DNA of 64,000 nt from a virus (Duplodnaviria > Heunggongvirae > Uroviricota > Caudoviricetes). The position numbers and the translations under genes were made by a program. Location of the stretch: IMG/VR virus record IMGVR_UViG_3300032053_000007. One strand, given 5' to 3'. The first letter of the stretch is position 1, and each line of letters starts with the position of its first letter. The notes below the pieces were generated by a model. It was given only the letters and a program-made list of their open reading frames with translations. It was not told the origin of the DNA and made no database searches. This document shows positions 31,198 through 52,323 of the stretch, in pieces.

Positions 31198-31213
31198 TTA
31201 ATCAGGTGTTTAA
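31198..31213. promoter_or_regulatory. degenerate TTAATCA-NN-TGATTAA palindrome
   Basis: ttaatcaggtgtttaa. Confidence 0.4.
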
Positions 31214-31215
31214 CC

Positions 31216-31485
31216 GTGAGTGAAAAAGTAAAACAATATCTGCAATGTGGATGCAAAACAAAATTTATTCTTCTTGCTAGAGAGGAACACGAGAAACTTC
31301 ACAGAGATGCGTTTATACATTCTCTTGCACTATATAATGGTGCGATTGTTCACAACAACGTGGCACTACTTCATAGCGGAGAATCTTATTATCCTTCTAT
31401 TTCACTTAATTTAGGGGTTCGCCGTTTAGCTTGGCAAAGACGAGTTGAAATCTGGAACGAACCCGAACGTGTTCAATTTACTTGA
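31216..31485 (+). CDS. VxFT-tail protein
   Basis: GTG start; ends ERVQFT; TGA opens cassette 31483. Confidence 0.55.
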   Translation: MSEKVKQYLQCGCKTKFILLAREEHEKLHRDAFIHSLALYNGAIVHNNVALLHSGESYYPSISLNLGVRRLAWQRRVEIWNEPERVQFT

Positions 31486-31553: not shown

Positions 31554-32450
31554 ATGAGAAATATACTAAAGAATAAAAACGGCGAATGGAGCATTATTCG
31601 AATTGCTATTGTTGTCATCATTTCCGCATTTCTAGTGTTGACAGGCGTTCTAGGAATCAGGACTGTTCCAAGCGGTTACATAGGCGTTTCTACTCAATTC
31701 GGGCAAATTACAGGCACAACGGGTGAAGGCATTCATTGGGTCAACATTTGGTTTGGACAAGACATAGTGAACATTGACTTGCAGATTCATAAAGCAGAAC
31801 TAGCAAACATGTCTTGTGGAACTAACGACATGCAAGAAGTCACAACCACAGTTGCAATAAACTATCGAATTGAGTCTGGATTTGCAGAGGATATTTACAG
31901 AACACTCCGCACAGATTGGGAATCACGGGTTATAATCAACAACATGCAAGAAAGTCTAAAAGGTTCAATCTCTACTTTCAAAGCAGAAGAACTTCTCCAA
32001 AAACGAGATGCAGTAAAAGTTCTCTTTTTAGACACACTTCGCTCACGAATAAAGGATTATCACATAACAGTCGTTGACGTTCAGCTAGAGAACTTCGCAT
32101 TCTCAACAAAGTTCAACGAAGCCATTGAGAACAAAGTAACAGCCGAACAGCAAGCAATCACAGAAAAGAACAACTTAGAAATAGTTCGCTATCAACAGGA
32201 ACAGGAAATTCTCAAGCAACAAGCACAAGCAAACATGACAAGAATTGAAGCAGACGCATACGCATACGCAACTTTGGCAAAAGCCAATGCAGACGCGGAA
32301 GCATTGCAATTAATCGCACAGAAACTAAATGTTAGCCCAGAATATCTTCAATATCTCTATCTGCAACAATGGGACGGCAAACTGCCGACCTATTACGGAA
32401 GCGGTATAATTCCGTTCTTCCAACTGCCAACCAATTCGACAACTCCATAA
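31554..32450 (+). CDS. SPFH/band-7 (prohibitin-like) membrane protein
   Basis: N-terminal TM, RTVPSGYIGVSTQFGQ SPFH core, A/Q/E-rich coiled C-terminus. Confidence 0.75.
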   Translation: MRNILKNKNGEWSIIRIAIVVIISAFLVLTGVLGIRTVPSGYIGVSTQFGQITGTTGEGIHWVNIWFGQDIVNIDLQIHKAELANMSCGTNDMQEVTTTVAINYRIESGFAEDIYRTLRTDWESRVIINNMQESLKGSISTFKAEELLQKRDAVKVLFLDTLRSRIKDYHITVVDVQLENFAFSTKFNEAIENKVTAEQQAITEKNNLEIVRYQQEQEILKQQAQANMTRIEADAYAYATLAKANADAEALQLIAQKLNVSPEYLQYLYLQQWDGKLPTYYGSGIIPFFQLPTNSTTP

Positions 32451-32451
32451 A

Positions 32452-32470
32452 ATCTTCCTTTCTTTTTTTG
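32452..32470 (+). terminator. oligo-T terminator
   Basis: cttcctttctttttttg directly after stop. Confidence 0.5.
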
Positions 32471-32501
32471 TATATGGGTTTTCTTAGTAAACATTTATAT
32501 A
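32470..32501 (+). promoter_or_regulatory. degenerate box/TATA promoter cassette
   Basis: gtatATGGgttTTCT..TTTATATA; offset 24. Confidence 0.5.
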
Positions 32502-32537
32502 GAGGATTGTTATAGTATTCTAGTAAGGTCGAGAAAA

Positions 32538-33218
32538 ATGAAAAAAAGAAATTTGATAATAATCGCGCTTTTGATTGCGTTAGTGATACCAATAGTGATA
32601 GTTCCAGCATTTGCTTCTGACGACAATGATAAGCCAAATTGCAATGACGGTGACGATGGCAACTCTTGTAACAACAAGACCAAAATAATCTACGTGGACA
32701 GAATTGTTTACGTCAACCAAACGGTTGAAGTTCCTGTTTACGTGGACAGAATAGTGTACGTTGACAGAGTTGTTGAGAAAATCGTTTACAAAGACAGAAT
32801 AGTGGAAAAGACTGTTTACATTGACAGAATAGTTGAAAAGATTGTCTATGTTGACAAAGTTGTTGAAACAGTCGTTTACGTTGAAGTGCCAATAGAGGTC
32901 ATCAAAGAAGTCATTAAGGAAGTGCCTGTCGAAGTCATCAAGGAAGTCGAAATAATCAAATACTGCAACAACACGGTCTATATCGAAGTGCCAAAAGAAG
33001 TCATCAAGTACATCGAGAAAGTCCTTTACGTGAACAGAGTTGTTTACGTTGACAAGCCATTCTACGTCTATATCACCGACAACAAGAAAGACTGTAACCC
33101 ATGTTGGCTCTTGATAATCATACTGACTTTCATACTAGGACTGATAATTGGGGCATTGCTCAACAATCGAAAGTGTGTTTGCGTCAAAGAAACCAAAAAC
33201 AAAAATACCAAACAATAG
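32538..33218 (+). CDS. secreted/anchored repeat protein (x-V-Y-x-D-R-I-V-E-K decapeptide repeats)
   Basis: N-terminal signal/TM, Cys/Asp/Asn-rich stretch, about 10 repeats, then (E)VIKEV repeats, C-terminal TM. Confidence 0.65.
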   Translation: MKKRNLIIIALLIALVIPIVIVPAFASDDNDKPNCNDGDDGNSCNNKTKIIYVDRIVYVNQTVEVPVYVDRIVYVDRVVEKIVYKDRIVEKTVYIDRIVEKIVYVDKVVETVVYVEVPIEVIKEVIKEVPVEVIKEVEIIKYCNNTVYIEVPKEVIKYIEKVLYVNRVVYVDKPFYVYITDNKKDCNPCWLLIIILTFILGLIIGALLNNRKCVCVKETKNKNTKQ

Positions 33219-33388: not shown

Positions 33389-33404
33389 TTAATCAGTTGA
33401 TTAA
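33389..33404. promoter_or_regulatory. TTAATCA-NN-TGATTAA palindrome
   Basis: ttaatcagttgattaa. Confidence 0.55.
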
Positions 33405-33562: not shown

Positions 33563-33853
33563 ATGACAACAAGAGAAGATGCAATAAAGCACATTCAGAA
33601 TTATAACAAGCCAAACGAACATATCTGTCTAATAATTTGGAATGTTGAGGACGTTCTGGGACGGGCAAAAGACAGGGGTATGAAAATTACCAAAAATGAA
33701 GCAGAGGAAATTATTGACATAATGGAACATAGACATGACGCAACAATAGGTGTAACTTGGGATACTATTGACTGTTATCTAGGAGATTTAGATGACAAAC
33801 GCCAAGAAGAGGAAAAGGCAAAGAATGGGGCAGAAAAGGTGTCCTTCACTTGA
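33563..33853 (+). CDS. VxFT-tail protein
   Basis: ends EKVSFT; TGA opens cassette 33851. Confidence 0.6.
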   Translation: MTTREDAIKHIQNYNKPNEHICLIIWNVEDVLGRAKDRGMKITKNEAEEIIDIMEHRHDATIGVTWDTIDCYLGDLDDKRQEEEKAKNGAEKVSFT

Positions 33854-34174: not shown

Positions 34175-34183
34175 GTGAATGGA

Positions 34184-35041
34184 ATGACCGAAACAGAAAA
34201 TAAAATCGCGGTTGAAATATCTGAACCCGATAAGGTTCAAGAAATGAGCGATGCAATACTTGAAATGATAGTGAAGAACCTAGTCGATAACGGAAGATTG
34301 CTTGTTATTGGGCTAGGGGGAACGGGCAAGACAAACGCCGTGAAGCACATAGTAAGATACATTCGAAACTCACAAAGATATAAAGAGGGAAAAATAGTAA
34401 TTCGAATAGGCGATAGTGCTAATACATGGAAACTCACATTTGATGAAATACCCTACGTTGACATAACAAAGAAACCGAGCATTCCAGAGGACGAGAAAAC
34501 AGTTTTGCTTGATTTGGGATTCTTATCAACTGCAAAAAATGTTAGCCTAGTCGAAAACTTAGTCGGACAAGACTATTACATTCAGAGAGAATCAATGAAC
34601 AAGAACAACGGGACGGCAGAAATCCAGAGAATCTACGTTCTGGAAGAGATTCAGAACTTGTTTGGTTCTTACAAGAAATCTGACTTCTGGTTGAAGATTT
34701 GGAGCGAATCAAGAAATTATAGTCAATTCTTCATAGGAATAGGTCAACGTCTGAGTGACATTTCTACTCAGATAGTTGAGCGCACAAAATATCTACTGAT
34801 AGGTTCTCTCGCTGGCGATAACGACATCTCGAAATTGAAAAGGGCATTTGGTTCAGAGAAGGGACAGAGAATAGCAAATGTAGTTATGAGTTTGCGAAAA
34901 GGCGAATTTCTCTGGGTTGACAGAGAGGGCGAAAACTCTATGAAAATTTCGTTTCCAAAGTTCGAACAGAACGGTAAACCTTATGAATTTAACGACAAAA
35001 CCATTAACACAAGGATTCATGCCGAGAGAGTTTTCCTATGA
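34184..35041 (+). CDS. P-loop NTPase (FtsK/HerA/A32-type candidate)
   Basis: Walker A GLGGTGKT, Walker B-like RIYVLEE; ATG 34184 after SD AGGTGA (track used GTG 34175). Confidence 0.6.
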   Translation: MTETENKIAVEISEPDKVQEMSDAILEMIVKNLVDNGRLLVIGLGGTGKTNAVKHIVRYIRNSQRYKEGKIVIRIGDSANTWKLTFDEIPYVDITKKPSIPEDEKTVLLDLGFLSTAKNVSLVENLVGQDYYIQRESMNKNNGTAEIQRIYVLEEIQNLFGSYKKSDFWLKIWSESRNYSQFFIGIGQRLSDISTQIVERTKYLLIGSLAGDNDISKLKRAFGSEKGQRIANVVMSLRKGEFLWVDREGENSMKISFPKFEQNGKPYEFNDKTINTRIHAERVFL

Positions 35042-35187
35042 ATTTCTGGAAAGTTTATCAGAAATGGGTTTTGGTTACGGGCAATATTATTGCCTATTAC
35101 ACCCATTCTGAATTTCTTCTTTTCCTTTTTTTCCTTCTCAATGACCCATTAATAGTTTTAGCATTGAAAGGGAGAACAACAGAATGA
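35038..35187 (+). CDS. small hydrophobic protein (49 aa)
   Basis: ATGA overlap at both ends. Confidence 0.4.
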   Translation: MNFWKVYQKWVLVTGNIIAYYTHSEFLLFLFFLLNDPLIVLALKGRTTE

Positions 35188-35405
35188 TTAAGGTCAGATG
35201 TGCGAATTGCAAAAAAGAATTTTACTGTAATGGTAATGATATGTGTTCTGTCGGCATTCGAGTTTCACAATTTCACAAAAAGATACATGAATGTTATTGT
35301 GAAGAATGTACGAGAAAACAACGCTTAGATACCGCGAAAGGAATTAAAAAATGCGGTTACAGAAAAGTTGAGGACGTAGAACCAGAAATGGTGAAATTCA
35401 CATGA
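35184..35405 (+). CDS. ZR-F family zinc-ribbon mini-protein
   Basis: CANCKKEFYCNGNDMC..CYCEEC; ends EMVKFT. Confidence 0.65.
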   Translation: MIKVRCANCKKEFYCNGNDMCSVGIRVSQFHKKIHECYCEECTRKQRLDTAKGIKKCGYRKVEDVEPEMVKFT

Positions 35406-35725
35406 TTGTCGGATTAAAAATCTTAGATGATTTTCAAGTTGGGGACGCGGAAGAGTTAGTCGAACAACTGAGAAAACGCGGTTTGCTAGATTTGACTCTT
35501 GAACAAGTGAAAGAGAAAGTTAAGAAAGAATATAATGGCACAGATTTTGAGGACGTAGTTTGTAACGATGATTGTATAGACTATATTCTCAAAGATTTAG
35601 CTGACGGTTGTTTTTATTGGGAATACCACAATAGTTCAGAACAATTTACGATAAACATAATTGACCCTAATAAACCATTCACTAAAGACGGTAAAGAACC
35701 AAAGGTTAAGGTGCAATTCAGTTGA
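35402..35725 (+). CDS. acidic VxFS-tail protein
   Basis: ends VKVQFS (AGTTGA junction). Confidence 0.6.
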   Translation: MIVGLKILDDFQVGDAEELVEQLRKRGLLDLTLEQVKEKVKKEYNGTDFEDVVCNDDCIDYILKDLADGCFYWEYHNSSEQFTINIIDPNKPFTKDGKEPKVKVQFS

Positions 35726-35949
35726 GTTTACCAACACAGGGCTGTTTCAACTGTTTGTTTAACAACCGAAAAAAAGGATATTGTGATACGAAAGGAGAAC
35801 AATATGGAACGAGATATGAGAATATAGGAAAACACAGCGAAAAATCCATTAAGACGACAGGAAGCAGTTGTATAACTTGGAAACAAGGAATAGACCTTTT
35901 CGCAAAATGGGATAAAGAGAAAGTAAAGGAAAGGGTGAAGTTTACTTGA
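35722..35949 (+). CDS. GCFNC family mini-protein
   Basis: QGCFNC..GSSC; ends ERVKFT. Confidence 0.6.
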   Translation: MSLPTQGCFNCLFNNRKKGYCDTKGEQYGTRYENIGKHSEKSIKTTGSSCITWKQGIDLFAKWDKEKVKERVKFT

Positions 35950-36119
35950 AGTGTAAAAATTGTAAAAAAGAGTTTAATTGCAAGCAATCATGTGATGCGA
36001 AAAATAGAAAGATGAACCAATGTTTATGTCCTGATTGTTGGGTGAAAAAGAAAGAAAGACTTGTAGAATGTCTTAAAGTCAAGCAACCAAATGAAAGGGA
36101 AATAGTGATGTTCACTTGA
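35946..36119 (+). CDS. ZR-F family zinc-ribbon mini-protein (57 aa)
   Basis: CKNCKKEFNCKQSC..CLCPDC; ends EIVMFT. Confidence 0.6.
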   Translation: MKCKNCKKEFNCKQSCDAKNRKMNQCLCPDCWVKKKERLVECLKVKQPNEREIVMFT

Positions 36120-36265
36120 ACAAAATAATACCCAGAGGACAAGCCAACAGAGAAGAGTTGAAAGTTGGAGATGTCTTTCACAAAAACGGTTATCGTTATC
36201 TGGTTCAAAAAATAGTTCATGGGATTCCATATTTAGAAGAACAAGAGGAAGTGCAATTCACTTGA
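36116..36265 (+). CDS. VxFT-tail mini-protein (49 aa)
   Basis: ends EEVQFT. Confidence 0.5.
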   Translation: MNKIIPRGQANREELKVGDVFHKNGYRYLVQKIVHGIPYLEEQEEVQFT

Positions 36266-36390
36266 ATCGAGAACAGATAATCAAAAATCTAAAATCTGTT
36301 CCAACAGGAAATGTCCAACAGAATCAGCAAATAATTGCTCAGGCATTAATTTACATCTTGGAGAATAAAGAAAAGGTGTCCTTCACTTGA
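36262..36390 (+). CDS. VxFT-tail mini-protein (42 aa)
   Basis: ends EKVSFT. Confidence 0.5.
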   Translation: MNREQIIKNLKSVPTGNVQQNQQIIAQALIYILENKEKVSFT

Positions 36391-36551
36391 GAAGAATGCA
36401 ACTGCAAGCTAACATAAAAACGGGCGTAACTACTCTGAAAGTTTTGATATGCACAAACTATTTACAAGACAGATGCCAAAAGTGTGACATGTATTCTGTG
36501 TGCGATGTTAGTGGCAAAAAGCCTAAAAAGGAAGTTGTGTGTTTCACTTGA
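36387..36551 (+). CDS. Cys-rich VxFT-tail mini-protein (54 aa)
   Basis: CQKCDMYSVC; ends EVVCFT. Confidence 0.5.
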   Translation: MRRMQLQANIKTGVTTLKVLICTNYLQDRCQKCDMYSVCDVSGKKPKKEVVCFT

Positions 36552-36763
36552 CCGAAAAAATTCCGCTAGAAGAAGATTATGACCCCCCAGATTATAGAGA
36601 GAAACTTACTTGTTATAATTGTGAGAAGTTCGCAAGTAGTATTAGAGAAATAGGCAATGGGGGAAGAGTAAAATTTGCTCACAAGTTTTGGTGGCTTTGT
36701 CCCGAATGTTTCAAAAAGCTAATTTTGAAAGAAAAAAGAAAAGAGAGGGTTGAGTTCACATGA
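36548..36763 (+). CDS. zinc-ribbon VxFT-tail mini-protein
   Basis: trimmed to junction TTG; CYNC..CPEC; ends ERVEFT. Confidence 0.6.
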   Translation: MTEKIPLEEDYDPPDYREKLTCYNCEKFASSIREIGNGGRVKFAHKFWWLCPECFKKLILKEKRKERVEFT

Positions 36764-37047
36764 CACGTAAAGTTAGTTTAAGATGGCTTGCGTATTCTAA
36801 TGACCCTCTTGCAGTAAAATTTAGAGGGGGTATAAGTGGGGGTTCAGAGGAATGTGCTCTTTGCTCTATGTTTTTTGAAGATGACTACGATGACGGAGAA
36901 CATATATCTAAATGTTCATTTGAAGAGATACACGAAAGCGAGATAGAACACTTTCAACAGATGGCAGATGAGATGATTTTGGATATTAAAATTACTTCAC
37001 TAGGCGATATAAGGAACGCTATAAAAGAAGTAGTTCAGTTCACTTGA
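36760..37047 (+). CDS. VxFT-tail protein
   Basis: ends EVVQFT; TGA opens cassette 37045. Confidence 0.6.
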   Translation: MTRKVSLRWLAYSNDPLAVKFRGGISGGSEECALCSMFFEDDYDDGEHISKCSFEEIHESEIEHFQQMADEMILDIKITSLGDIRNAIKEVVQFT

Positions 37048-37077
37048 GTATGGTAGTTCTGGGCTAAGGTTTATATA
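37045..37077 (+). promoter_or_regulatory. GAGCATGG-box/TATA promoter cassette
   Basis: tGAGTATGGtagTTCT..TTTATATA; offset 24. Confidence 0.6.
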
Positions 37078-37108
37078 GGACGATGCTAATATACTCTTGT
37101 TGATAAAA

Positions 37109-38043: not shown

Positions 38044-38076
38044 GGACGAACACATAGACATAACTGAGTGTCTGCA

Positions 38077-38343
38077 ATGGAAGGAAGTAAAGCGTTTCGC
38101 GCTCAGATAGACAAACTTGTTAAGCAACGAACAAAACTTAAACTAGACGATGACGTAAAAATATTGAGGGGGGAAAACAAAGGCAAGATAGGGTTCATTG
38201 ACAAAATAGGCTCTATAACAGACATTAAAGACGTAAATTCTACACACGTTCAATATCTTGTTCGTGTTGGCAAAGACCTTCTTGCATACGATGATTTTGA
38301 ATTACAGGTAACAATGAAACCTGAGAAAGTGGACTTCACATGA
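38077..38343 (+). CDS. VxFT-tail protein
   Basis: trimmed to ATG 38077; ends EKVDFT. Confidence 0.6.
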   Translation: MEGSKAFRAQIDKLVKQRTKLKLDDDVKILRGENKGKIGFIDKIGSITDIKDVNSTHVQYLVRVGKDLLAYDDFELQVTMKPEKVDFT

Positions 38344-38606
38344 TGTTGAAAACGGATTGTCTAAAATGTGGTGCATGGGTTCCTGAATATAATCGGGACG
38401 ATGATATGATAGACGTTTCTTTGTGCAAAGATTGTCTTGCGATGTGGCACAAATTTCATCACAAATATGGAAGGGATATTGAAAGAAAATATACTCAGGG
38501 CATAAATGGACATCACGCAAGTTGGGCTGTTTTTCTAGGCGAACTTCCTAACTTCTGGGATAAGAGTATAGACAAACCTAAAAAAGAACGAGTGCAATTT
38601 ACATGA
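38340..38606 (+). CDS. ZR-W family zinc-ribbon mini-protein
   Basis: CLKCG..CKDCLAMW; ends ERVQFT. Confidence 0.65.
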   Translation: MMLKTDCLKCGAWVPEYNRDDDMIDVSLCKDCLAMWHKFHHKYGRDIERKYTQGINGHHASWAVFLGELPNFWDKSIDKPKKERVQFT

Positions 38607-38761
38607 ATAACCCCGATTGTGAAAAGTGTCATTGCAACGGTTGTGCTAACTTCTGCTATAAAACTTGTAAAAGTCATTCATGTGGTGCTGACAGAGAAAA
38701 TTATCCTTACAAAATTTTGTGCAGAGAAATCAAAATCAGAGAGAAGGTATTGTTCACTTGA
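38603..38761 (+). CDS. Cys-rich VxFT-tail mini-protein (52 aa)
   Basis: 9 Cys; ends EKVLFT. Confidence 0.5.
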   Translation: MNNPDCEKCHCNGCANFCYKTCKSHSCGADRENYPYKILCREIKIREKVLFT

Positions 38762-38985
38762 AGTGCGCTAAATGTCACAAAGAAATTCAGGGACGAGAAG
38801 TTAAGATAGGAGAATCTAAAGAAACTATGAGAATTATTTGTATGGGGTGCAGAACAGTTTGGATAAAAATTTATGAGAAAAAGATTCAGATATTAGAAGG
38901 TTTCCAACTTCAAAATAAAGTTTGGAAAGAAGAGTATCACAAGTTCATAGGAATTATAGACAAAGAACAGGTAGAATTTACATGA
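38758..38985 (+). CDS. ZR-W family zinc-ribbon mini-protein
   Basis: trimmed to junction TTG; CAKC..CMGCRTVW; ends EQVEFT. Confidence 0.6.
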   Translation: MKCAKCHKEIQGREVKIGESKETMRIICMGCRTVWIKIYEKKIQILEGFQLQNKVWKEEYHKFIGIIDKEQVEFT

Positions 38986-39128
38986 ATCGAAACGAACAAC
39001 CTGATTATTGCAAAAAGTGTGAGTTGGATTGTGAGGGAAGAGTATGGGATTCAAAAAGAGGATTGTGGTATTGCACAAGTTGGACTTGCTTTATTCCAGA
39101 TAACAGAGAGCGAGTTGAGTTTACTTGA
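38982..39128 (+). CDS. Cys-rich VxFT-tail mini-protein (48 aa)
   Basis: trimmed to junction ATG; CKKCELDC; ends ERVEFT. Confidence 0.55.
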   Translation: MNRNEQPDYCKKCELDCEGRVWDSKRGLWYCTSWTCFIPDNRERVEFT

Positions 39129-39505
39129 GTGGCACTTTTTCGAATTGGACTTTACGCAAAGAACCTGAGTTTGAAACCGAACTAACAGATATTATGGAAG
39201 AATATTCAGATGACACGATAGAGAAAAATATCCTTATCATTTTGAAACGGGAGAAATTATGGGATAAGGGGTTTGAACTGATTTTTCCTATTGGAGCTTT
39301 CAAAGAGATAGATAAAGAAAATGATAGCTACCAATTTGACTATGAGATTTGGAAGGGCGATAAGGTAATTGCTAGTGGAACTTGTTACGGGACTGTCACA
39401 ACCGACTTGGCATATTCAGAAATTTTAGATATGACACTAGAAATAAATGAGGGATATAGCGAACTTGTACGTTTACATTCAAAAGAAAAGGTTGAGTTTA
39501 CATGA
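39125..39505 (+). CDS. acidic VxFT-tail protein
   Basis: ends EKVEFT. Confidence 0.6.
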   Translation: MSGTFSNWTLRKEPEFETELTDIMEEYSDDTIEKNILIILKREKLWDKGFELIFPIGAFKEIDKENDSYQFDYEIWKGDKVIASGTCYGTVTTDLAYSEILDMTLEINEGYSELVRLHSKEKVEFT

Positions 39506-39717
39506 TAGTCCCCGAACTTTTCAAAAGAACTTGTAGAACGTGTGGACGAATTTTTTACTGTGATAATGATTGTGGAAAACTTGAAAAGAGCAAACATAGT
39601 AATGGTTGTGAATGTGGATTATGCCACGCAAAAACAGTAAGGGAAAATGGTCGTTCTTGCGAAGAACGAATGGAGCGAAACAAATATCGTTATCAAGAGG
39701 TTGTACAATTTACATGA
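39502..39717 (+). CDS. ZR-F family zinc-ribbon mini-protein
   Basis: CRTCGRIFYCDNDC..CECGLC; ends EVVQFT. Confidence 0.65.
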   Translation: MIVPELFKRTCRTCGRIFYCDNDCGKLEKSKHSNGCECGLCHAKTVRENGRSCEERMERNKYRYQEVVQFT

Positions 39718-39815
39718 ACCATCTACAACATATTTTTACAAAATATAGAAGTCTCAAAAAATGGTATGACCGTTTTGAAATTGAGAAAGAACCCGTGAGA
39801 GTGCAATTCACATGA
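39714..39815 (+). CDS. VxFT-tail mini-protein (33 aa)
   Basis: trimmed to junction ATG; ends VRVQFT. Confidence 0.5.
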   Translation: MNHLQHIFTKYRSLKKWYDRFEIEKEPVRVQFT

Positions 39816-40027
39816 CACAAAAATCCTATAATCGTATTTGTGAAAAATGCGGTGAATCTTTTCAAACGAATAACGATATTCTTTGTCAAAAATGCAGAGA
39901 AAAATGGTATAATTTTTACGAACTTCACAAAAACGATGCCGACATTCCAGAATCCGAAGCAAAAGCAACCTTTCTCTGGGACAAGTTTATTAAAAGGGTA
40001 GATAAAGAGGTAGTGCAATTTACATGA
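39812..40027 (+). CDS. ZR-W family zinc-ribbon mini-protein
   Basis: CEKCG..CQKCREKW; ends EVVQFT. Confidence 0.65.
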   Translation: MTQKSYNRICEKCGESFQTNNDILCQKCREKWYNFYELHKNDADIPESEAKATFLWDKFIKRVDKEVVQFT

Positions 40028-40233
40028 AGAAATATCCATTAGCTCTAACAAAGAAGTGCGGTAATTGTGGTAGAACTTTCACTTGTAAAGGGAGAGGATG
40101 GACTAAATCTTCAATAACGGGAAAATGTCCTCACGAATATAGCGTTTGTTGGTGTGAAAAATGCAATCATGGGTCGGGTCGTCCAGAAGGTTGCGAAGAG
40201 GTTGACTTAAAAGAAGTGGTGCAATTCACATGA
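40024..40233 (+). CDS. ZR-F family zinc-ribbon mini-protein
   Basis: CGNCGRTFTCKG..CWCEKC; ends EVVQFT. Confidence 0.65.
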   Translation: MKKYPLALTKKCGNCGRTFTCKGRGWTKSSITGKCPHEYSVCWCEKCNHGSGRPEGCEEVDLKEVVQFT

Positions 40234-40373
40234 CGGAAATATACTGCGCTGGAAAAATAATTTACTGCGATGTCGGGGAGATAAATCATTATGACGATTT
40301 TTGTCAAAAGAGTTGCAGACAACGTTCGATTTGTGAAGTGAGAAAACAAAAAGAAGAGGTTCAATTCACTTGA
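40230..40373 (+). CDS. Cys-rich VxFT-tail mini-protein (47 aa)
   Basis: ends EEVQFT. Confidence 0.5.
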   Translation: MTEIYCAGKIIYCDVGEINHYDDFCQKSCRQRSICEVRKQKEEVQFT

Positions 40374-40567
40374 AAGAAATGACGTGCCAAGTTTGCGGAA
40401 AAAAGTTCTTCTGTAATTGTGACGAAGAATGTTCCCCAGACGCTACATTATGCTATTGTAAAGAATGTTCAATCAAAAAATGGGGAACAAAATTTACTGA
40501 AGATATAGGGTCACTTGAATTGTGCTATGGGGGAATACCCGAAAAAGAGAAGGTGTTATTCACTTGA
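40370..40567 (+). CDS. ZR-F family zinc-ribbon mini-protein
   Basis: CQVCGKKFFCNC..CYCKEC; ends EKVLFT. Confidence 0.65.
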   Translation: MKEMTCQVCGKKFFCNCDEECSPDATLCYCKECSIKKWGTKFTEDIGSLELCYGGIPEKEKVLFT

Positions 40568-40773
40568 CAAACAAACTCGTTGATAAAGAAGAACTTCCAG
40601 ATTTTTGTCCCGTGTGCGGAGAAAAGAATAACGGAAAATGGGCGTTTCTTTGTATAAAATGTTGGATGGTTTTTGTCAAGTGGAGTCATGAAAAATATCC
40701 GAATGACATAATAATTTCAGACCATATTCCAGAATATTTAGCCAAACTCAAAGAGAAGGTAGAGTTCACTTGA
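40564..40773 (+). CDS. ZR-W family zinc-ribbon mini-protein
   Basis: trimmed to junction TTG; CPVCG..CIKCWMVF; ends EKVEFT. Confidence 0.6.
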   Translation: MTNKLVDKEELPDFCPVCGEKNNGKWAFLCIKCWMVFVKWSHEKYPNDIIISDHIPEYLAKLKEKVEFT

Positions 40774-41048
40774 AATGTTCGAAATGTGGAAAACCAATAA
40801 CTGTAACTCTTCCAAAAAAGAAATGGTTCCACGTAAGCAATTCTAATAATTTTGAACATAAAGACGAAGATACCAAAACGATAGATGCGGTTTTAATCTT
40901 TTTAGTAAATAGCGGATTTAAACATAACATCTGGATTTGTAGAGGATGTTATGACGAATGGGGCATCTTTCATGGGAAACATTTTGGAAGATGGGAATAT
41001 TGCTGGAATCTCTGGTTTAATATGAGAGAGGTTGTTCGATTCACATGA
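40770..41048 (+). CDS. ZR-W family zinc-ribbon mini-protein
   Basis: CSKCGK..CRGCYDEW; ends EVVRFT. Confidence 0.65.
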   Translation: MKCSKCGKPITVTLPKKKWFHVSNSNNFEHKDEDTKTIDAVLIFLVNSGFKHNIWICRGCYDEWGIFHGKHFGRWEYCWNLWFNMREVVRFT

Positions 41049-41260
41049 ACAAAATTTGTGGAAAATGCGGAAAACATTTCGTGTGCAATAATGGGTGCGC
41101 TAGATTAGGTCTTAGTCATGGCAAAGTGCAATACGGGGGTTGTTATTGCTCCGATTGTGCGCGAAAGTTTGAGAAATCCGAAGTTGGGGAATACCCAAAA
41201 GATTTGAAAGAAGTTTGTTCACGATTCTGTAAAGCTAAAGAAACGGTGTCATTCACATGA
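41045..41260 (+). CDS. ZR-F family zinc-ribbon mini-protein
   Basis: CGKCGKHFVCNNGC..CYCSDC; ends ETVSFT. Confidence 0.65.
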   Translation: MNKICGKCGKHFVCNNGCARLGLSHGKVQYGGCYCSDCARKFEKSEVGEYPKDLKEVCSRFCKAKETVSFT

Positions 41261-41487
41261 CCCATAAATCTCCGCTTGCACAATGGAAAAAGAAACCACT
41301 TGTCGAATTGAAAAGTGAAATTCATACTTTACAAGCATTGAGCAACCGATTAACTAGGTCTGCGGAACTACATAAAAAAGAGAGAAATTTTCCAATGCAA
41401 ATGGTTTGTCTGATAAAGAAGAGAAAAGTCGATATTAGAATTTCTGAACTTATGTTTCGGATTCCAGAAAAGGTGAGTTTCGATTGA
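41257..41487 (+). CDS. VxFD-tail protein
   Basis: ends EKVSFD. Confidence 0.6.
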   Translation: MTHKSPLAQWKKKPLVELKSEIHTLQALSNRLTRSAELHKKERNFPMQMVCLIKKRKVDIRISELMFRIPEKVSFD

Positions 41488-41624
41488 CAGAAGAGAAAAT
41501 GATAGAATGTTTTAGATGTGGAAAACTTTGGTTCTGCAAACCCTTCGCTGGAAGTCGTGCACTTTTTTGTCCCGAATGTCTAAAACTATTGTATAAACAA
41601 AAAGAGAAAGTTCGGTTCGATTAG
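41484..41624 (+). CDS. zinc-ribbon VxFD-tail mini-protein (46 aa)
   Basis: CFRCGKLWFC..CPEC; ends EKVRFD; stop TAG, last gene of array. Confidence 0.55.
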   Translation: MTEEKMIECFRCGKLWFCKPFAGSRALFCPECLKLLYKQKEKVRFD

Positions 41625-41729
41625 TCCCCTACCCCTAGCTACATTTGACAGGTAAATAGACTAGGGAAAAAGACGTTCTGGATGCTAGGGCGAAGCCAAT
41701 GGGAACTGAAGCCTGAAGTCGGTGCTTTT

Positions 41730-41745
41730 TTAATCAGTTGATTAA
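41730..41745. promoter_or_regulatory. TTAATCA-NN-TGATTAA palindrome
   Basis: ttaatcagttgattaa. Confidence 0.55.
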
Positions 41746-41899
41746 AAGTCTGGGGAATACGTTGGGGGCTGGCAGAGGGCTTCACCATAAACCGAAATCT
41801 AATTGGGAAGAAAAAACGCCTATGTGCGTTATGTGACACTCAGGATTCTACTAAAAATTTAATTTTCGAGGGGACGGAAAGTTACACCGAAAGTGTGAC

Positions 41900-42031
41900 C
41901 TAGCCTTCGTCCTCTAGTGCTTCCTCAAGTTCTGACGGGTCGGGACAACCAACGGGTCGCCTGAAAGTTTTAACTACTTTTGCAAGAACAATTAAACCTA
42001 TTATGAAACCCAGAGTATCAAACGGAAACAT
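41900..42031 (-). CDS. small membrane protein (43 aa)
   Basis: MFPFDTLGFIIGLIVLAKVV..; ATG about 12 nt after TSS predicted from minus-strand cassette 42067-42099. Confidence 0.4.
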   Translation of the reverse strand: MFPFDTLGFIIGLIVLAKVVKTFRRPVGCPDPSELEEALEDEG

Positions 42032-42714: not shown

Positions 42715-44442
42715 ATGACAAAGCAGAAACAAGCAAAGACGAACAACTTCTCTAAGATACTTGACGAGATGAGGAATCTTGCCATAGCAATTACGAAGGA
42801 CAAACGGATTCGTATCAAGTATATTCCAGAACAACCAACTTCTGCTTTCAATATGGAAAACTTTGAGATTTCTTTGAGTTTACAGAGTTATCCCGATTTC
42901 GTGAAAACATCGCCCCGTCTATTCCGAAAAATCCTAGACGGTGACATGGTTCACGAGTGCGGTCATCTGATTCTAACAAAACCGAATTGGGAATTTTTCA
43001 ACAATTGGACAACAAAAATCAAACGACAGAGAGGATTTTACAAGCTGGCTCACGAAGTTTGCAACATAGTTGAAGATAAGCGCGTGAATCATTTCATAAT
43101 TCTCAGATACAGGTTTGATGTCGGCAAGAGGCTACTTTTGGCGAATTTGATACTAAAAGACATGATAGACAACACAATTGAAAAGCCACAAATAGCCATG
43201 TCAACCATCTTACCGAAGGGCGAAAACTTAGGCGAAAACGAAATTCCAAACATGACAATTCAAGCTGGACAACAAGACGGGGTTTACATGGTTGCAATTT
43301 TGTGCAATGAAGGTCTATATGAGGCTAAATGCACAGAGTTATGGAACAAACTAAGCCCAGATGCTAGAAAGGACTGTGAAACAGCCCTTAAAGTGCTAGA
43401 GGGGACGAAATATCAACGTGTCAAACTCGACATAATAAGGTCTTGCCAAACGATTTATGAATTGGTAGCTAAACACTTGAACGCTGACTATACGACAAAG
43501 GAATATGTCGTTTCTAGAAGAGGGGGCAACGTAAAGGGCAAAATATCGGACAGACTTAGGCAATTACTAGAAAAAGAGGAAGAGCAAGAAAAGGCAGAAG
43601 AGGACAAGAAGAAACACCTAGAAGATTTGCAGAAAGGTTCGGGTGCTGGCGAAGGCACAGGCGAAGAGATTCCAGCCCCAGACCCAGATTTTGAGGCGTA
43701 TTCGAAACTTCTGGACGAATGCAAGCCTGAAATTTCCGAGCTATTGAATCAACTAAAGAAGAAAATGAAACCGAGAGTTCAACGGGACATTTTCCAGAAA
43801 CGCGGAAAAATGATGAGTCCAATTGTTCCACGCATCTACACAAACAGCTTTAGGGGAACCGTTCGCAATGTGTATCTGCGTACAACAACAAAATTTGAGA
43901 AGGAACAAGTCGCAATTCAATTTTGGTTCGATTTCTCAGGGTCAGTTAGTCGAATAGAGGCTGAAAAGATAACCACTATACTGAATGAGGTCTTTGGACA
44001 TTACGTTGACGATTACGGGTTCAGTATTGGGTGCTTTGGGGCAGATACCCAGAAAGTAAAGACTTTCTTTGAAACCTTCGAAAACACACGGGCAAGAATT
44101 GGAGCTATTTCGGTGAATGCTGGCGGTACTGAGGTTTCCGTTGGATTAGAGGCAAGCCTGAGAATGTTCAATACGATTAAAGGCGAACGCCGAAAGATTC
44201 TGGTCATTGCGTCCGATTTCTGCTTCTGTGGTGATGAAGAAACGAAAGCAGAGGAATTAATCGACCAATATGCGAAAGCTGGAATTGAATGTATCTTCAT
44301 AGGTTTCTGTGACTGTGAGAATGTAGAAACCTTCGCAAGCAAAGTGAAAAACTTGAAGTGCTCACGAACACGGATAAACCAAATATCCGAATTACCTCAG
44401 AGATTCCTAAACGTGTATCTAAACGTAGAAACCCAGAAGTGA
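42715..44442 (+). CDS. vWA-domain protein with N-terminal HExxH putative metallopeptidase domain
   Basis: MVHECGHLI; MIDAS-like FDFSGSVS; E/K-rich linker; architecture as in metallopeptidase-plus-VWA proteins partnered with MoxR ATPases. Confidence 0.65.
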   Translation: MTKQKQAKTNNFSKILDEMRNLAIAITKDKRIRIKYIPEQPTSAFNMENFEISLSLQSYPDFVKTSPRLFRKILDGDMVHECGHLILTKPNWEFFNNWTTKIKRQRGFYKLAHEVCNIVEDKRVNHFIILRYRFDVGKRLLLANLILKDMIDNTIEKPQIAMSTILPKGENLGENEIPNMTIQAGQQDGVYMVAILCNEGLYEAKCTELWNKLSPDARKDCETALKVLEGTKYQRVKLDIIRSCQTIYELVAKHLNADYTTKEYVVSRRGGNVKGKISDRLRQLLEKEEEQEKAEEDKKKHLEDLQKGSGAGEGTGEEIPAPDPDFEAYSKLLDECKPEISELLNQLKKKMKPRVQRDIFQKRGKMMSPIVPRIYTNSFRGTVRNVYLRTTTKFEKEQVAIQFWFDFSGSVSRIEAEKITTILNEVFGHYVDDYGFSIGCFGADTQKVKTFFETFENTRARIGAISVNAGGTEVSVGLEASLRMFNTIKGERRKILVIASDFCFCGDEETKAEELIDQYAKAGIECIFIGFCDCENVETFASKVKNLKCSRTRINQISELPQRFLNVYLNVETQK

Positions 44443-44448
44443 GTAAAA

Positions 44449-44613
44449 ATGGTTTGCATAATTGACGATAAAGAATGTAGAAAATTGGCAGACGAAATTT
44501 CTAAAGACCTCTTCGAATACAATAAACACAAGATAAAGCTAACCAAAAAATTCTTGTGGACTATGCTTTATTGCGAATTGAAACGAAGTAAACTTAACAA
44601 AACTCGAATGTGA
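44449..44613 (+). CDS. hypothetical small protein (54 aa)
   Basis: ATG 6 nt after vWA stop. Confidence 0.4.
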   Translation: MVCIIDDKECRKLADEISKDLFEYNKHKIKLTKKFLWTMLYCELKRSKLNKTRM

Positions 44614-44619
44614 TAACTT

Positions 44620-44847
44620 GTGAAATATAAAAGACATTGCACACATTGTAAGAACAATTTTTTCTGCAACGGAAAATGCAAAAGTGATAGACTTAAAAAT
44701 CCGAATGACTGTTATTGTCTTGAGTGTGTAAAAAAAGTTTCGGAAGAGTTTTCAAAGTTGTCTGGGGCAGACTCTACTTATGAATCTTTTAACGTTGTTC
44801 AATTTCATTGCCAAGAATCGGGCAGAGAAGAAGTGCAATTTACTTAA
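44620..44847 (+). CDS. ZR-F family zinc-ribbon mini-protein
   Basis: CTHCKNNFFCNGKC..CYCLEC; ends EEVQFT with TAA and no downstream gene. Confidence 0.65.
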   Translation: MKYKRHCTHCKNNFFCNGKCKSDRLKNPNDCYCLECVKKVSEEFSKLSGADSTYESFNVVQFHCQESGREEVQFT

Positions 44848-44896
44848 ACTTTTGGTGCAACCTTTGGTTCGGGCGGGAGAGGGGTTTTGAGAAATT

Positions 44897-44912
44897 TTAA
44901 TCAGTTGATTAA
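44897..44912. promoter_or_regulatory. TTAATCA-NN-TGATTAA palindrome
   Basis: ttaatcagttgattaa, 7 nt upstream of box. Confidence 0.55.
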
Positions 44913-44918
44913 CTAAAA

Positions 44919-44951
44919 TGAACATGGTCTTTCTAAGCAAACATTTAAATA
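44919..44951 (+). promoter_or_regulatory. GAGCATGG-box/TATA promoter cassette
   Basis: tGAACATGGtctTTCT..TTTAAATA; offset 24. Confidence 0.65.
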
Positions 44952-44985
44952 GGACGCTGGCATCTATACTCGTAAGGTAATAAAG

Positions 44986-45873
44986 ATGAACTCAGAATTT
45001 GAAAAGATTCATGCAAAGGTCGAATCAGCACTTGAAGGTGCTGGCATCTACGTCAAAGGCATCGAGTTCGTGGACGAACATGGCTACATTGAAAAGTCAA
45101 GAGCGATTCTTGAAATTGTCGGCAACCTTAGATTAGTCGGCGAAACGGGGACGGGCAAAACAACTCTTGTTCACAAGTTGGCTGAATTGTTAGAGGTTCC
45201 GCTTTTTGAAATTGTCTTAACACGGGACGTGACAAAGTGGGATTTGCTGGCATGTGATACTCTGAAAGCTGGAAGCACAGAAACAAGAGATGGAATCATA
45301 ATTCAATGGTTGAACAGCGAGAAAGGTCTGCTTTACATAGACGGGTTCAACTATGCAGAACCATCGATAATTTCACTTCTGGAATCATTGGCAGACTTTA
45401 GGGGAAACGTGTATATTCCAGAATACAAGAAGCAATTCACACGGACAGCACAGCACTATCTCGTTATCAGCTATAACCCCTCAGAAAAATCGGGTTACTC
45501 TGGGACATTCATCGAGAACATTGCAACCATTAGACGATTTGAAGGTCTGATAATCGAATACCTTAGCCCCCAGAAAGAACGCGAATTGGTAAAGAAGTTC
45601 TCTGGAAACTATGACTTTTCTGCGAAGTTCGTAGAAATTGCCAAAAAGACGCGAACCGAATACGAGAACGGAAAACTTAGAACGCCCCTCACGACAGGCA
45701 ACCTAATAAACTACGGCAAACTCTACAAAGCGAAGATGTCCGAAGAGGACATAATCGATATAGCAAGTTCGCTTTACACCGCAAGAGAAGAGCGCAATTT
45801 ATTTAGGTCGTTCTTCGAAGATAGCTCTGAGATAGACGTAGAAAAGTTGAAAAAGAAAGAAGAGGATACCTAA
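44986..45873 (+). CDS. AAA+ ATPase, MoxR/CbbQ/CobS-like (AAA_5 type)
   Basis: Walker A GETGTGKTT; LLYIDGFNYA Walker B region (Gly where Glu is expected); IRRFEG like the MoxR DRF motif. Confidence 0.7.
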   Translation: MNSEFEKIHAKVESALEGAGIYVKGIEFVDEHGYIEKSRAILEIVGNLRLVGETGTGKTTLVHKLAELLEVPLFEIVLTRDVTKWDLLACDTLKAGSTETRDGIIIQWLNSEKGLLYIDGFNYAEPSIISLLESLADFRGNVYIPEYKKQFTRTAQHYLVISYNPSEKSGYSGTFIENIATIRRFEGLIIEYLSPQKERELVKKFSGNYDFSAKFVEIAKKTRTEYENGKLRTPLTTGNLINYGKLYKAKMSEEDIIDIASSLYTAREERNLFRSFFEDSSEIDVEKLKKKEEDT

Positions 45874-46233: not shown

Positions 46234-46386
46234 ATGACTGATTATATTGAAGAGGCGTTAGCGCGAAGAGAAATGCAAGAATTTCTAATCGAGAGAAGAA
46301 AAGACTATCAGAAAAAATACGCTCAAACTCACAAACGAAAATCGAAACCGAAAAAGAAAGTTGAACGGGAAATTTTCCATTGGTGA
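46234..46386 (+). CDS. basic small protein (50 aa)
   Basis: below cutoff; K/R-rich. Confidence 0.4.
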   Translation: MTDYIEEALARREMQEFLIERRKDYQKKYAQTHKRKSKPKKKVEREIFHW

Positions 46387-46390
46387 AAAA

Positions 46391-46606
46391 ATGACATATA
46401 TCGGGCAAGACGAAGAATTAACGATAGAGCGTGGTTGTTTTAATTGCGCTCGATTCAAAAAATGTCATCTTATTGAGGGACAAAGAAGAAATGGAATTAA
46501 TTTTATGGAGATTTTGAAGGACGGTGCGGAAGATTATCGTTATGGTTGTTGTTGCACAACTTATCTAGCAGAATCCGAAGCTAGAGAACAGGTGCAATTT
46601 ACTTGA
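46391..46606 (+). CDS. GCFNC family mini-protein
   Basis: trimmed to ATG 46391; RGCFNCARFKKC..YRYGCCC; ends EQVQFT. Confidence 0.6.
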   Translation: MTYIGQDEELTIERGCFNCARFKKCHLIEGQRRNGINFMEILKDGAEDYRYGCCCTTYLAESEAREQVQFT

Positions 46607-46890
46607 TTCAAAATTGTCCGTCTTGCGGTTCAATTCGCTTGACTCGAAAATGTCCGTCTTGTGGTTCTATTCTGGAAGAACAAAGTGGAACACTTTTTTT
46701 CACAGATAGTTTTTCACAACACGATAGACAAAAAATAAGGGAAACTCACTTTTTGCATTATTTTTGCGAAGTTTGTCGTAAAAATGATTTGCCTTTTGAC
46801 TTTTTATTTTTCAAAGGAAAACAATTCATTTATGATAAGGGCAGATGGAACCTCTTAGCTCCTGAGAGAGAATGTGTTCAATTCACCTAA
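46603..46890 (+). CDS. zinc-ribbon VxFT-tail protein
   Basis: CPSCGS..CPSCGS; ends ECVQFT encoded GAATGTGTTCAATTCACCTAA (no SD, TAA stop). Confidence 0.6.
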   Translation: MIQNCPSCGSIRLTRKCPSCGSILEEQSGTLFFTDSFSQHDRQKIRETHFLHYFCEVCRKNDLPFDFLFFKGKQFIYDKGRWNLLAPERECVQFT

Positions 46891-47352: not shown

Positions 47353-47368
47353 TTAATCAAGTGATTAA
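47353..47368. promoter_or_regulatory. TTAATCA-NN-TGATTAA palindrome on predicted TSS
   Basis: ttaatcaagtgattaa centred about 27 nt after TATA centre. Confidence 0.55.
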
Positions 47369-47369
47369 A

Positions 47370-49267: not shown

Positions 49268-49284
49268 TCACGGTGTTGTTCTAG

Positions 49285-52321: not shown

Positions 52322-52323
52322 CT

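Follow-up and report, generated by a model that had tools for sequence, protein, structure and literature searches.

Introduction

Archaeal viruses with arrays of small cysteine-rich proteins are known, and so, separately, are translationally coupled overlapping genes and short C-terminal tags. In the coupled ATGA/TTGA operons of phages and archaea, genes are butt-joined with 4-nt overlaps, the Shine-Dalgarno (SD) sequence of a gene lies inside the 3' end of the previous one, and long operons are run from one promoter. Among C-terminal tags, PTS1 (-SKL), KDEL/HDEL and the ssrA-type degrons are very short motifs at the extreme C-terminus of many unrelated proteins, read by one receptor. Here we analyzed a 64-kb stretch of the IMG/VR virus record IMGVR_UViG_3300032053_000007, hereafter the window. 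About 40% of its genes encode proteins with a common C-terminal hexapeptide. This tail is lineage-specific on orthologous proteins and doubles as the ribosome-binding site and start of the next gene, a combination for which we found no description in open-access full text.

The locus compares with coupled operons in that 77 of its 84 tail joints read NTGA and 63 of 74 carry an SD-like core. However, ordinary coupled genes have unrelated C-termini, whereas here 84 genes end in one hexapeptide, also where they are uncoupled. With the C-terminal tags it shares a position at the extreme C-terminus, a spread over 58 sequence clusters, conservation at the peptide level at nine loci and, in one family, location in a flexible region. 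KDEL and HDEL moreover show that such tags come in lineage-specific variants, and the tails of these viruses do so too. By contrast, PTS1, KDEL and ssrA tags are cellular and unrelated in sequence to the viral tails, and the tagged fraction in the virus is far higher.

Terminal peptides also act in capsid loading and in host targeting. The capsid-targeting sequence (CTS) of T4 internal proteins and the cargo peptides of encapsulins are short terminal peptides that direct small proteins into an HK97-type shell. The T4 proteins are small, act against host defence and are ejected along with the DNA, and one tail protein of the window is Lar-like (restriction alleviation). But the T4 CTS is N-terminal and cleaved, encapsulin peptides serve one to few cargos and have another consensus, and the likeness to our locus is an analogy. 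Poxvirus ankyrin/PRANC F-box-like proteins similarly join varied binding modules to one short C-terminal hub motif. The [KR]-V-x-F tails presumably recall the RVxF motif of PP1, and we take V-F-R-COOH and x-F-T-COOH to recall, faintly, the HbYX motif (hydrophobic-Tyr-X) of proteasome tails. In the window, 57 of 84 tails contain [KR]-V-x-F (RVxF pattern [RK]-x(0,1)-[VI]-{P}-[FW]), while other lineages deviate; no PPP phosphatase was found there, the sole phosphatase domain being of the DSP type. As for HbYX, position -3 is mostly Q or E and -2 is F in the window, other classes read V-F-R, V-L-S, L-L-T or x-L-I, and Tyr occurs in none.

Integrons and the T4 PeSL mobile ORFs resemble the arrays in having small, rapidly exchanged accessory genes with a recurring boundary and an order reshuffled between relatives. 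Here, however, the boundary is 21 nt of coding sequence with free wobble positions and a conserved peptide, with no attC-type inverted repeat or stem-loop. The initial annotation of this DNA had set the locus apart from integrons, CRISPR arrays and polyproteins, and our analysis agrees: the junction is in frame with a 3-nt period, and no integrase families were found among the window open reading frames (ORFs); the units are ORFs of 100-380 nt under purifying selection, and their "repeat" is about 66% identical and codon-degenerate; a stop ends every unit, and the next unit lies in another frame. Two further candidates were rejected. A recoding array does not fit, since TTY-ACW-TGA is not a slippery heptamer and relatives use TAA and separated starts. 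A family of precursors of ribosomally synthesized and post-translationally modified peptides (RiPPs) does not fit either, as the proteins are folded domains of 33-126 amino acids (aa) of which 6 aa are shared; no RiPP enzyme families were found in the window.

Runs of small Zn-binding proteins have been described in the Asgard "Opia" viruses of wetland soil, where their combinations differ between genotypes and up to six of them, read as HNH or PacI-like nucleases, occur per 40-kb genome (bioRxiv 10.1101/2024.03.22.586370). Unlike the present case, no shared C-terminal motif or butt-joined junction was reported for them (bioRxiv 10.1101/2024.03.22.586370).

Results

A shared C-terminal tail on 84 mini-genes

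In the window, 84 ORFs end in V-x-F-[TDS], comprising 81 on the plus strand (at least 30 aa) and three genuine minus-strand ORFs at 12552-13089. Fifty mononucleotide shuffles of the sequence gave on average 0.06 such ORFs, with a maximum of 1. The tail ORFs are 33-126 aa long (median 72 aa), no window ORF longer than about 130 aa bears the tail, and the window contains approximately 200 genes overall.

Counting from the last residue (-1), the tail has K, R or P at -7, E at -6 in 73 of 84 cases, and mostly K (46), V (14) or R (11) at -5. Val at -4 and Phe at -2 are present in all 84, the former through all four GTN codons. Position -3 is free, with Q at 40%, and the last residue is T (75), D (7) or S (2). 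The stop is TGA in 77 cases, TAA in five and TAG in two. At 77 of 84 tails the start of the next gene overlaps the stop as ATGA, TTGA or GTGA, using ATG (39), TTG (36) or GTG (2). The information content of the junction is limited to 21 nt with a 3-nt period and is nil downstream of the stop.

One array comprises exactly 17 consecutive plus-strand genes with a 4-nt overlap between neighbours. They start at 38068 (GTG; first ATG at 38077), 38340, 38603, 38758, 38982, 39125, 39502, 39714, 39812, 40024, 40230, 40370, 40564, 40770, 41045, 41257 and 41484, and the array ends at 41624. This array, an example of its junctions and the remaining tail genes are as follows.

38068 to 41624, plus strand: 17 butt-joined mini-genes with tails [KRP]-E-[KVR]-V-x-F-[T/D], 16 internal ATGA/TTGA joints and a last stop TAG
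38323 to 38343, plus strand: example junction GAG AAA GTG GAC TTC ACA TGA, encoding E-K-V-D-F-T and the stop, with the next ATG (A plus TG) at 38340
5875 to 6343, plus strand: three tail genes (..EKVTFT, ..EKVQFD, ..EKVKFD)
12552 to 13089, minus strand: three tail genes (..VKVQFD, ..EKVEFT, ..TKVQFT)
14247 to 14411, plus strand: isolated tail gene (end VKVQFD-TAA) with a promoter and non-coding DNA behind it and no gene coupled to it
15911 to 20104, plus strand: array of 18 tail genes and one non-tail gene (16150-16287)
22428 to 25013, plus strand: array of 12 tail genes
27244 to 27477, plus strand: isolated tail gene of 77 aa (..EKVQFT) among core genes
30836 to 31485, plus strand: two tail genes (30836-31060 and 31216-31485) on either side of a non-tail gene
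33563 to 33853, plus strand: isolated tail gene of 96 aa (..AEKVSFT), whose tail is kept in the L007 ortholog
35184 to 37047, plus strand: array of nine tail genes, including 36760-37047, whose family was modelled and traced across lineages
44620 to 44847, plus strand: isolated tail gene ending EEVQFT-TAA, followed by an intergenic promoter
46361 to 46890, plus strand: two tail genes, the second ending ECVQFT (ACC) TAA
48648 to 51907, plus strand: 14 tail genes, two in 48648-49021 and 12 in 49465-51907, the last ending EQVQFT-TAA

Six tail genes are isolated, with starts at 14247, 27244, 30836, 31216, 33563 and 44620. The initial annotation had reported 17 consecutive ORFs of 33-126 aa without spacers, about 84 ORFs with the same joint in a list of further arrays, fixed Val (all four GTN codons) and Phe, and a free position -3. 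All of these points were borne out, against the shuffled background as well (84 against a mean of 0.06), and every listed array was present; the first start of the 17-gene array was refined to the GTG at 38068.

Tail-bearing proteins are small and belong to many unrelated families

We then considered which proteins bear the tail. Cys makes up 6.0% of their residues compared with 2.6% in other small ORFs, and 54 of 84 have at least one CxxC. Cysteine content is the sole difference: pI and hydrophobicity are the same as in other small proteins. With the last eight residues removed, the 84 proteins fell into 58 BLAST clusters, of which 52 were singletons and the largest was a zinc-ribbon group of 22 members. 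Pfam matches were limited to assorted zinc ribbons, a TFIIB-type ribbon, KOW, one Lar-type restriction-alleviation domain and archaeal small-protein families such as HVO_2753-like and DUF75xx. The tail proteins are small, soluble and mostly of zinc-ribbon type, and belong to at least 58 unrelated families.

The mini-ORFs are under purifying selection. Ten mini-genes of the window, each paired with its ortholog in L007 (85% identity in the core gene), gave dN/dS values of 0.11 to 0.55, and they are therefore real genes. The initial annotation would have been refuted by a lack of purifying selection in related elements, and it withstands this check.

For the family of W_36760 (95 aa), an AlphaFold2 model (predicted local distance difference test, pLDDT, 82) was confident and folded over residues 1-80, whereas residues 85-94, the linker and most of the tail, had pLDDT below 50. 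A profile search of 1.84 billion proteins with this family returned members ending EKVEFT, EIVKFD, EIVSFT, ETFVVS and KIKVELI, together with three members without a tail, whose sequence ends directly behind the last domain strand. From the tail-bearing and tail-less homologs it follows that the tail comes after a linker of variable length. In the one family modelled, the tail is thus predicted to lie outside the folded domain, behind a disordered linker.

Related lineages carry their own tails

We used the VWA protein of the core module described below as a handle to find relatives (77 homologs) and fetched approximately 20 kb around homologs of decreasing identity. Tails were then sought as over-represented C-terminal dipeptides, so that the motif was not presupposed. 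Each sampled locus had a dominant tail of its own. The tails numbered 12-30 per 20 kb in each lineage, compared with 0-0.5 per locus in shuffles. The loci, with their core-gene identity to the window, were as follows.

L007, 85%: E-K-V-x-F-T, 30 ORFs
L003, 68%: E-[KIV]-V-x-F-[T/D/S/N], 13 ORFs
L010, 52%: E-K-V-x-F-T, 7 ORFs
L016, 51%: ..F-T, 4 ORFs
L009, 59%: E-K-V-[LMI]-L-T, 17 ORFs
L014, 52%: K-[VI]-K-V-x-L-[IV], 16 ORFs
L015, 50%: K-[VI]-[KR]-V-x-L-I, at least 7 ORFs
L011, 42%: E-[TI]-F-[VI]-L-S, 13 ORFs
L012, 45%: x-F-[VI]-F-R, 14 ORFs
L017, 42%: x-F-[VI]-F-R, 13 ORFs
L013, 33%: [LFM]-[ED]-[KR]-[VM]-C, 12 ORFs

The codons behind these tails are degenerate. Across lineages, Leu in the tails is encoded by all six codons (TTA, TTG, CTC, CTT, CTA and CTG), and the L011 tail E-T-F-V-L-S alone uses CTG, CTC, CTT, TTA and TTG. 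Ser in the same lineage is encoded by AGT, AGC, TCT, TCG and TCC, that is, from both Ser families, and Arg in the F-V-F-R tails of L012 and L017 by AGG, AGA, CGA and CGT, again from both families. The F-V-F-R tail is retained at 41% and 31% GC in these two lineages. Moreover, in L003, L010, L011 and L013 roughly every second tail is followed by TAA or TAG, and no start overlaps it. Such behaviour could not come from a DNA site, and the selection is therefore mainly on the peptide.

Orthologous proteins bear the tail of their own lineage. W_36760 ends ..KEVVQFT and its 57% identical ortholog L011_4503 ends ..EETFILS; likewise, W_49659 (..REKVTFT) corresponds to L011_14061 (..KETFILS), and W_19402 (..RIKVQFT) to L009_6930 (..EVKVLLT). 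When the core protein was placed on a neighbour-joining tree, V-x-F-T appeared in two subclades among which K-V-K-V-x-L-I and V-L-L-T are nested, E-T-F-V-L-S lay inside F-V-F-R, and E-K-V-C formed the outgroup. The tag has therefore been switched several times, each time across a whole set of dozens of genes. The changes at individual positions, F to L, T to I and E to V, are single-nucleotide steps.

Whether such arrays are syntenic or reshuffled, a question raised by the initial annotation, had a mixed answer. The window and L007 are partly syntenic, with cassettes A-B-C-D-E-F.. in the former and A-x-y-F-C-B-z-F.. in the latter; the order is reshuffled and many cassettes are replaced.

Synonymous sites of the tail build the start region of the next gene

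Within the window, the tail codons are strongly biased. K is encoded by AAG in 42 of 46 tails against a background of 22%, V by GTG in 56% against 12%, and E by GAG in 44% against 27%, and the final codon is restricted to ACA or ACT at coupled joints. This bias yields GAG-AAG-GTG-nnn-TTY-ACW-TGA, in which AAGGTG forms an SD sequence 8-9 nt before ATG or TTG. The start of the next gene consists of the last base of the Thr codon and the TG of the stop. Of the 74 plus-strand coupled starts, 63 have an SD-like core upstream, and in 53 of them its GGT ends 9 nt before the start.

Coupled and uncoupled ends were then compared. Seven operon-terminal tails of the window, which end in TAA or TAG and have no coupled gene, keep V-x-F-[T/D], and the SD-type codon bias is gone: GTG occurs in two of seven, and the last codons include GAC twice and ACC, which are absent at coupled joints and unable to form a start. 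Conversely, 19 non-tail genes of the window are NTGA-coupled with unrelated C-termini and weak SD sequences. In relatives the tail is also kept before TAA stops, with the next start lying apart. AAGGTG or AGG followed by TGA is found in most tail classes, while the tails of L011 have no SD-like sequence.

Taken together, the joint is dual-coded, as a peptide tag whose synonymous sites build the initiation region of the next cistron. The initial annotation was correct in the three consequences it drew from the joint (a V-x-F-T tail, an SD sequence and an overlapping stop and start). It had viewed the joint as a conserved DNA junction of about 20 nt; 21 nt are indeed conserved, but the cause is mainly the peptide. 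The causal order is reversed because tails persist where genes are uncoupled, relatives differ in the peptide, and 19 coupled joints have no tail.

Source of the window and its relatives

The window is identical in sequence to part of a 151.7-kb metagenome contig in ENA, and an 86-kb contig from a second sample is 99.7% identical to it. It is thus part of a genome of at least 152 kb from an uncultivated virus. An assembly artefact is excluded, since independent samples contain the same sequence and V-x-F-T tails are present on 24 further JGI contigs. These contigs, which answer the metagenome scan proposed with the initial annotation, have 3-25 tails each and 223 tails in 185 kb. With moderate confidence, we regard the element as a large virus, probably head-tailed, whose host would be an uncultivated archaeon of peat or sediment.

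Approximately 200 short genes are packed densely in the window, nearly all on one strand. The few recognisable ones encode two GT2 glycosyltransferases, an RNA ligase, a KaiC/RadA-like ATPase, an SPFH protein, a MoxR-type AAA_5 ATPase and a 575-aa VWA protein. Relatives encode a family-B DNA polymerase (PolB in L012) and LAGLIDADG endonucleases, and have large genes with a weak minor-tail-protein match (in L014). Neither the window nor its flanks yielded a capsid, scaffold or protease gene.

A profile search of IMG/VR found three relatives of the element, and a scan of IMG/VR with the exact junction sequence gave no match. Scanning the GTDB species-representative genomes with the core protein and its profile returned no relative and therefore no host clue. 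There was no DNA similarity to deposited phages, and tblastn of the MoxR ATPase against phages gave bacterial phage matches only, at about 25% identity. The tRNA and Rfam scans of the window were negative.

Two near-identical strains differ only within 52.5-53.3 kb, and their arrays are unchanged. In the comparison with L001, the near-identical contig from the second sample, 52513-53265 is a local hypervariable spot with 35 single-nucleotide polymorphisms and 15 indels, the other 20 kb compared are identical, and a non-alignable gap of about 200-440 bp follows this variable stretch. From 52000 to 64000 the strand-composition skew of the plus-strand arrays flattens or reverses, GC rises to 0.39-0.43, tail genes number zero and ORF calls are ambiguous, so that this part is apparently a different genome module.

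Public gene calls for L001 and L002 omit many mini-genes. Within the 17-gene array, 40230-40373, 40370-40567, 40770-41048 and 41045-41260 are uncalled in both, and 39714-39815 is called in L002 only. Protein databases therefore under-represent them.

Promoters, core module and other features

A 30-nt promoter-like element, CATGGnnnTTCTnnnnRAAnnTTTATATAG, occurs at 27 intergenic sites of the window compared with 0 expected, among them 6521-6550, 21397-21426, 37049-37078, 44923-44952 and 52328-52357. It reads like a purine-rich TFIIB-recognition element (BRE) followed by a TATA box, as in archaeal promoters, with a conserved CATGG..TTCT part upstream of the BRE, and each operon has it 25-45 nt before its first gene. 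Usually just upstream of it, and sometimes paired, stands the palindrome TTAATCAGTTGATTAA (TTAATCA-NN-TGATTAA), with 44 strand-matches at about 26 window sites compared with 0.2 expected (for example 5097-5112, 25370-25385, 33389-33404, 41730-41745, 44897-44912, 52306-52321 and 52371-52386). A dimeric regulator probably uses the palindrome as its operator, or else the site is associated with terminators. Three GC-rich stretches of 200-380 nt (14412-14785, 41625-42000 and 49267-49465) have no convincing ORFs, and each is near a promoter or palindrome. They have no Rfam match, and the two that were folded (14450-14760 and 49300-49465) did so no better than shuffles.

Further features of the window are the following.

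37049 to 37078, plus strand: BRE/TATA promoter-like motif (TATGGTAGTTCTGGGCTAAGGTTTATATAG) heading the operon that runs into the 17-gene array
42715 to 45873, plus strand: core module of a CobT-like protein (42715-44442) and a MoxR/CobS-like AAA_5 ATPase (44986-45873), used to find relatives
34175 to 35041, plus strand: 288-aa P-loop protein, conserved and immediately upstream of a tail array in every lineage sampled (five lineages)

The MoxR and CobT-like module is the widespread CobS/CobT-like pair of phages. In the CobT-like VWA protein, the helical N-terminal domain has an invariant H80-E81-x-x-H84 and E120-D121 across 27 homologs (30-85% identity), a pattern from which it may be a zincin metallopeptidase. 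Its C-terminal half is a VWA domain with a metal-ion-dependent adhesion site (MIDAS) and a DxSxS motif, nearest to the MIDAS domains of NorD and Rea1, and the predicted fold of the protein matches CobT-like VWA proteins of tailed viruses, including haloarchaeal ones. Several homologs (P0001-P0077) are interrupted by inteins with LAGLIDADG domains. Pfam has no match for the CobT-like N-terminal domain or for a conserved protein of about 220 aa. A 232-aa protein (47361-48059) with no Pfam or PHROG match occurs at 44-85% identity in every lineage and always adjoins the MoxR ATPase and the CobT-like protein, giving a three-gene module.

The 288-aa P-loop protein has weak matches to nSTAND/AAA_19 and to a PHROG of terminase large subunits, and its own C-terminus, ..AERVFL, is conserved (RVERIFL and ARRVFL in relatives). 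A 108-aa family without the tail (51949-52275 in the window) has five matches in L003 and two in L007, sometimes within longer ORFs, and is a second expanded family in relatives. The region 31554-33218 encodes an SPFH/Band-7 protein (E = 2e-29) and, after it, one of 226 aa without a meaningful family match.

Discussion

Our analysis identifies a real C-terminal tag that is conserved as a peptide, specific to lineages and borne by orthologs, with a coupling signal superimposed on it. A terminal motif of about six residues after a flexible linker, with hydrophobic residues at -4 and -2 and a conserved last residue, present on unrelated proteins and rewritten in concert, suggests a docking or sorting signal. 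We therefore lean towards the view, which we hold to be probable though by no means certain, that the tail is a C-terminal docking or sorting tag read by one co-evolving partner. With its hydrophobic -4 and -2, and a small residue and free carboxylate at -1, the tail looks like an exposed beta-strand. A single partner, viral or host, would recognise the tag including the free carboxylate and thereby give a large set of accessory proteins a common fate. Tag and partner would co-evolve, such that whole lineages switch all of their tails together. On top of this, in the lineage of the window GAG-AAG-GTG serves as the SD sequence of the next cistron and the final ACA or ACT with TGA as the overlapping ATG or TTG start, giving butt-joined arrays.

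Several other explanations needed to be separated from a docking tag. If the joint were purely an element of translational coupling, with SD sequence, fixed spacer and overlapping start serving termination-reinitiation, the peptide would be a passive by-product. The 77 of 84 tails that overlap the next start, the SD-like core at the right distance in 63 of 74 cases, the AAG/GTG bias that the peptide leaves unexplained, and the AAGGTG or AGG plus TGA within most tail classes all speak for this. Nevertheless, F, L, T, S, R and C are kept via full synonymous sets, including those of the six-fold Leu, Ser and Arg; tails occur without any SD-like sequence in L011 and persist at operon ends, before TAA or TAG with distant starts; 19 coupled joints of the same genome manage without a tail; and conservation has a 3-nt period with free wobble positions. 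Pure coupling is largely refuted as the sole cause, and we consider it improbable. We regard it as quite improbable that the joint is a recombination or cassette boundary, in which a shared stretch of about 20 nt, like integron attC sites, T4 PeSL elements or lambdoid boundary sequences, lets cassettes enter, leave and shuffle in frame and the peptide is tolerated baggage. A crossover from junction to junction would always be in frame, and the arrays of the window and L007 are partly syntenic with a different cassette order and many replacements. Yet exact in-register identity between two junctions is 6 nt in the median and 10 nt at the 90th percentile, amounting at best to microhomology. The junctions are conserved codon by codon with third positions free, other lineages keep the peptide with highly divergent DNA, no integrase or recombinase families were detected among the window ORFs, no inverted-repeat site is evident in the 21 conserved nt, and no cassette indels separate the two near-identical strains. 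Shuffling aided by microhomology may be a useful by-product, not the reason for the conservation.

The remaining alternatives accept selection on the peptide and assign it another role. Tails might bind each other as exposed hydrophobic beta-strands, co-assembling by a strand zipper or cross-beta into a body or condensate with no separate receptor; all tails would then have to match and would evolve in concert. The alternating hydrophobic residues at -4 and -2 in all classes (K-V-K-V-I-L-I, F-V-F-R, V-x-F-T), the concerted switching and the flexible linker are compatible with such self-association; V-x-F-T, however, would associate with itself only weakly, being short and half polar (Q, E, T), and the strictly terminal site with a conserved last residue suggests a pocket for the free carboxylate. 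We give self-association little credence. C-terminal residues influence termination efficiency in bacteria, and the nascent tail could act within the ribosome, its last residues tuning termination at the stop codon and hence reinitiation on the next gene. This fits a tail that is always the last six residues and mostly precedes UGA-A. It does not fit six very different tail chemistries ending in T, S, R, C or I/V, the use of all three stop codons, or tails with nothing coupled downstream, and the peptidyl-transferase centre and release factor are too conserved for lineage-specific switches. A role in the ribosome thus seems to us very improbable indeed.

Several points weigh against a docking tag read by one partner, or against its setting in an archaeal virus. 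SD-like elements (AAGGTG, AGG plus TGA) are present in the tail classes, the contribution of initiation to E-K-V is real, and the initiation signal could explain more of the conservation than we have credited. The case for fold and linker comes from a predicted model of one tail protein family, and the tail proteins and their retained tails are known here as genes. We infer the single receptor and the fate of the tagged proteins; the concerted lineage-specific switching would support a receptor indirectly. The assignment to an archaeal tailed virus is likewise indirect, drawing on promoter-like motifs, inteins, archaeal Pfam DUFs, a weak tail-protein match and fold similarity, and the element yielded neither a capsid, portal or terminase gene nor a link to a host. 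Finally, our finding no description of a shared C-terminal motif on viral mini-proteins applies to the open-access full-text literature.

If the tail is a docking or sorting tag, three fates can be ranked, although we would not call any of them likely by itself. Foremost would be loading into the virion as ejected cargo, as the proteins are small, one resembles Lar, and T4 internal proteins and encapsulin cargo peptides offer an analogy. Next would be timed turnover, with the tail as a C-terminal degron for the removal of accessory proteins. The last would be recruitment to one host hub of many binding modules, by analogy with poxvirus PRANC proteins. More broadly, and as a tentative possibility, the tail could be a proteome-wide C-terminal address code, a six-residue tag that is rewritten when its reader changes and sends up to 100 or more different small zinc-ribbon effectors per genome to one destination. 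The destination could be the capsid interior, for ejected anti-defence cargo in an encapsulin-like system of unprecedented scale, or a host hub such as the proteasome, to which each mini-protein, as an adaptor, would bring a different host target. We set aside as speculation the idea that the MoxR and CobT-like module reads the tag, for the same pair is common in phages without such tags; the Glu that might be bound by a MIDAS site is absent from two tail classes.

Whatever its reader, the tail is a cheap marker for recognising this virus group in metagenomes from sediment and peat and for calling its tiny genes, many of which gene callers currently miss. The arrays are a clear natural case of dual coding, with a peptide motif, an SD sequence and a start codon within 21 nt, and the two coding layers can be separated by comparing coupled with uncoupled ends. 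The lineage-wide switches of the tag are a natural experiment on the co-evolution of a signal and its reader over about 100 genes at once. If the tail is an address label, archaeal viruses would possess a simple and portable targeting code, and there would be a handle on the approximately 40% of this viral proteome that is otherwise unannotatable.

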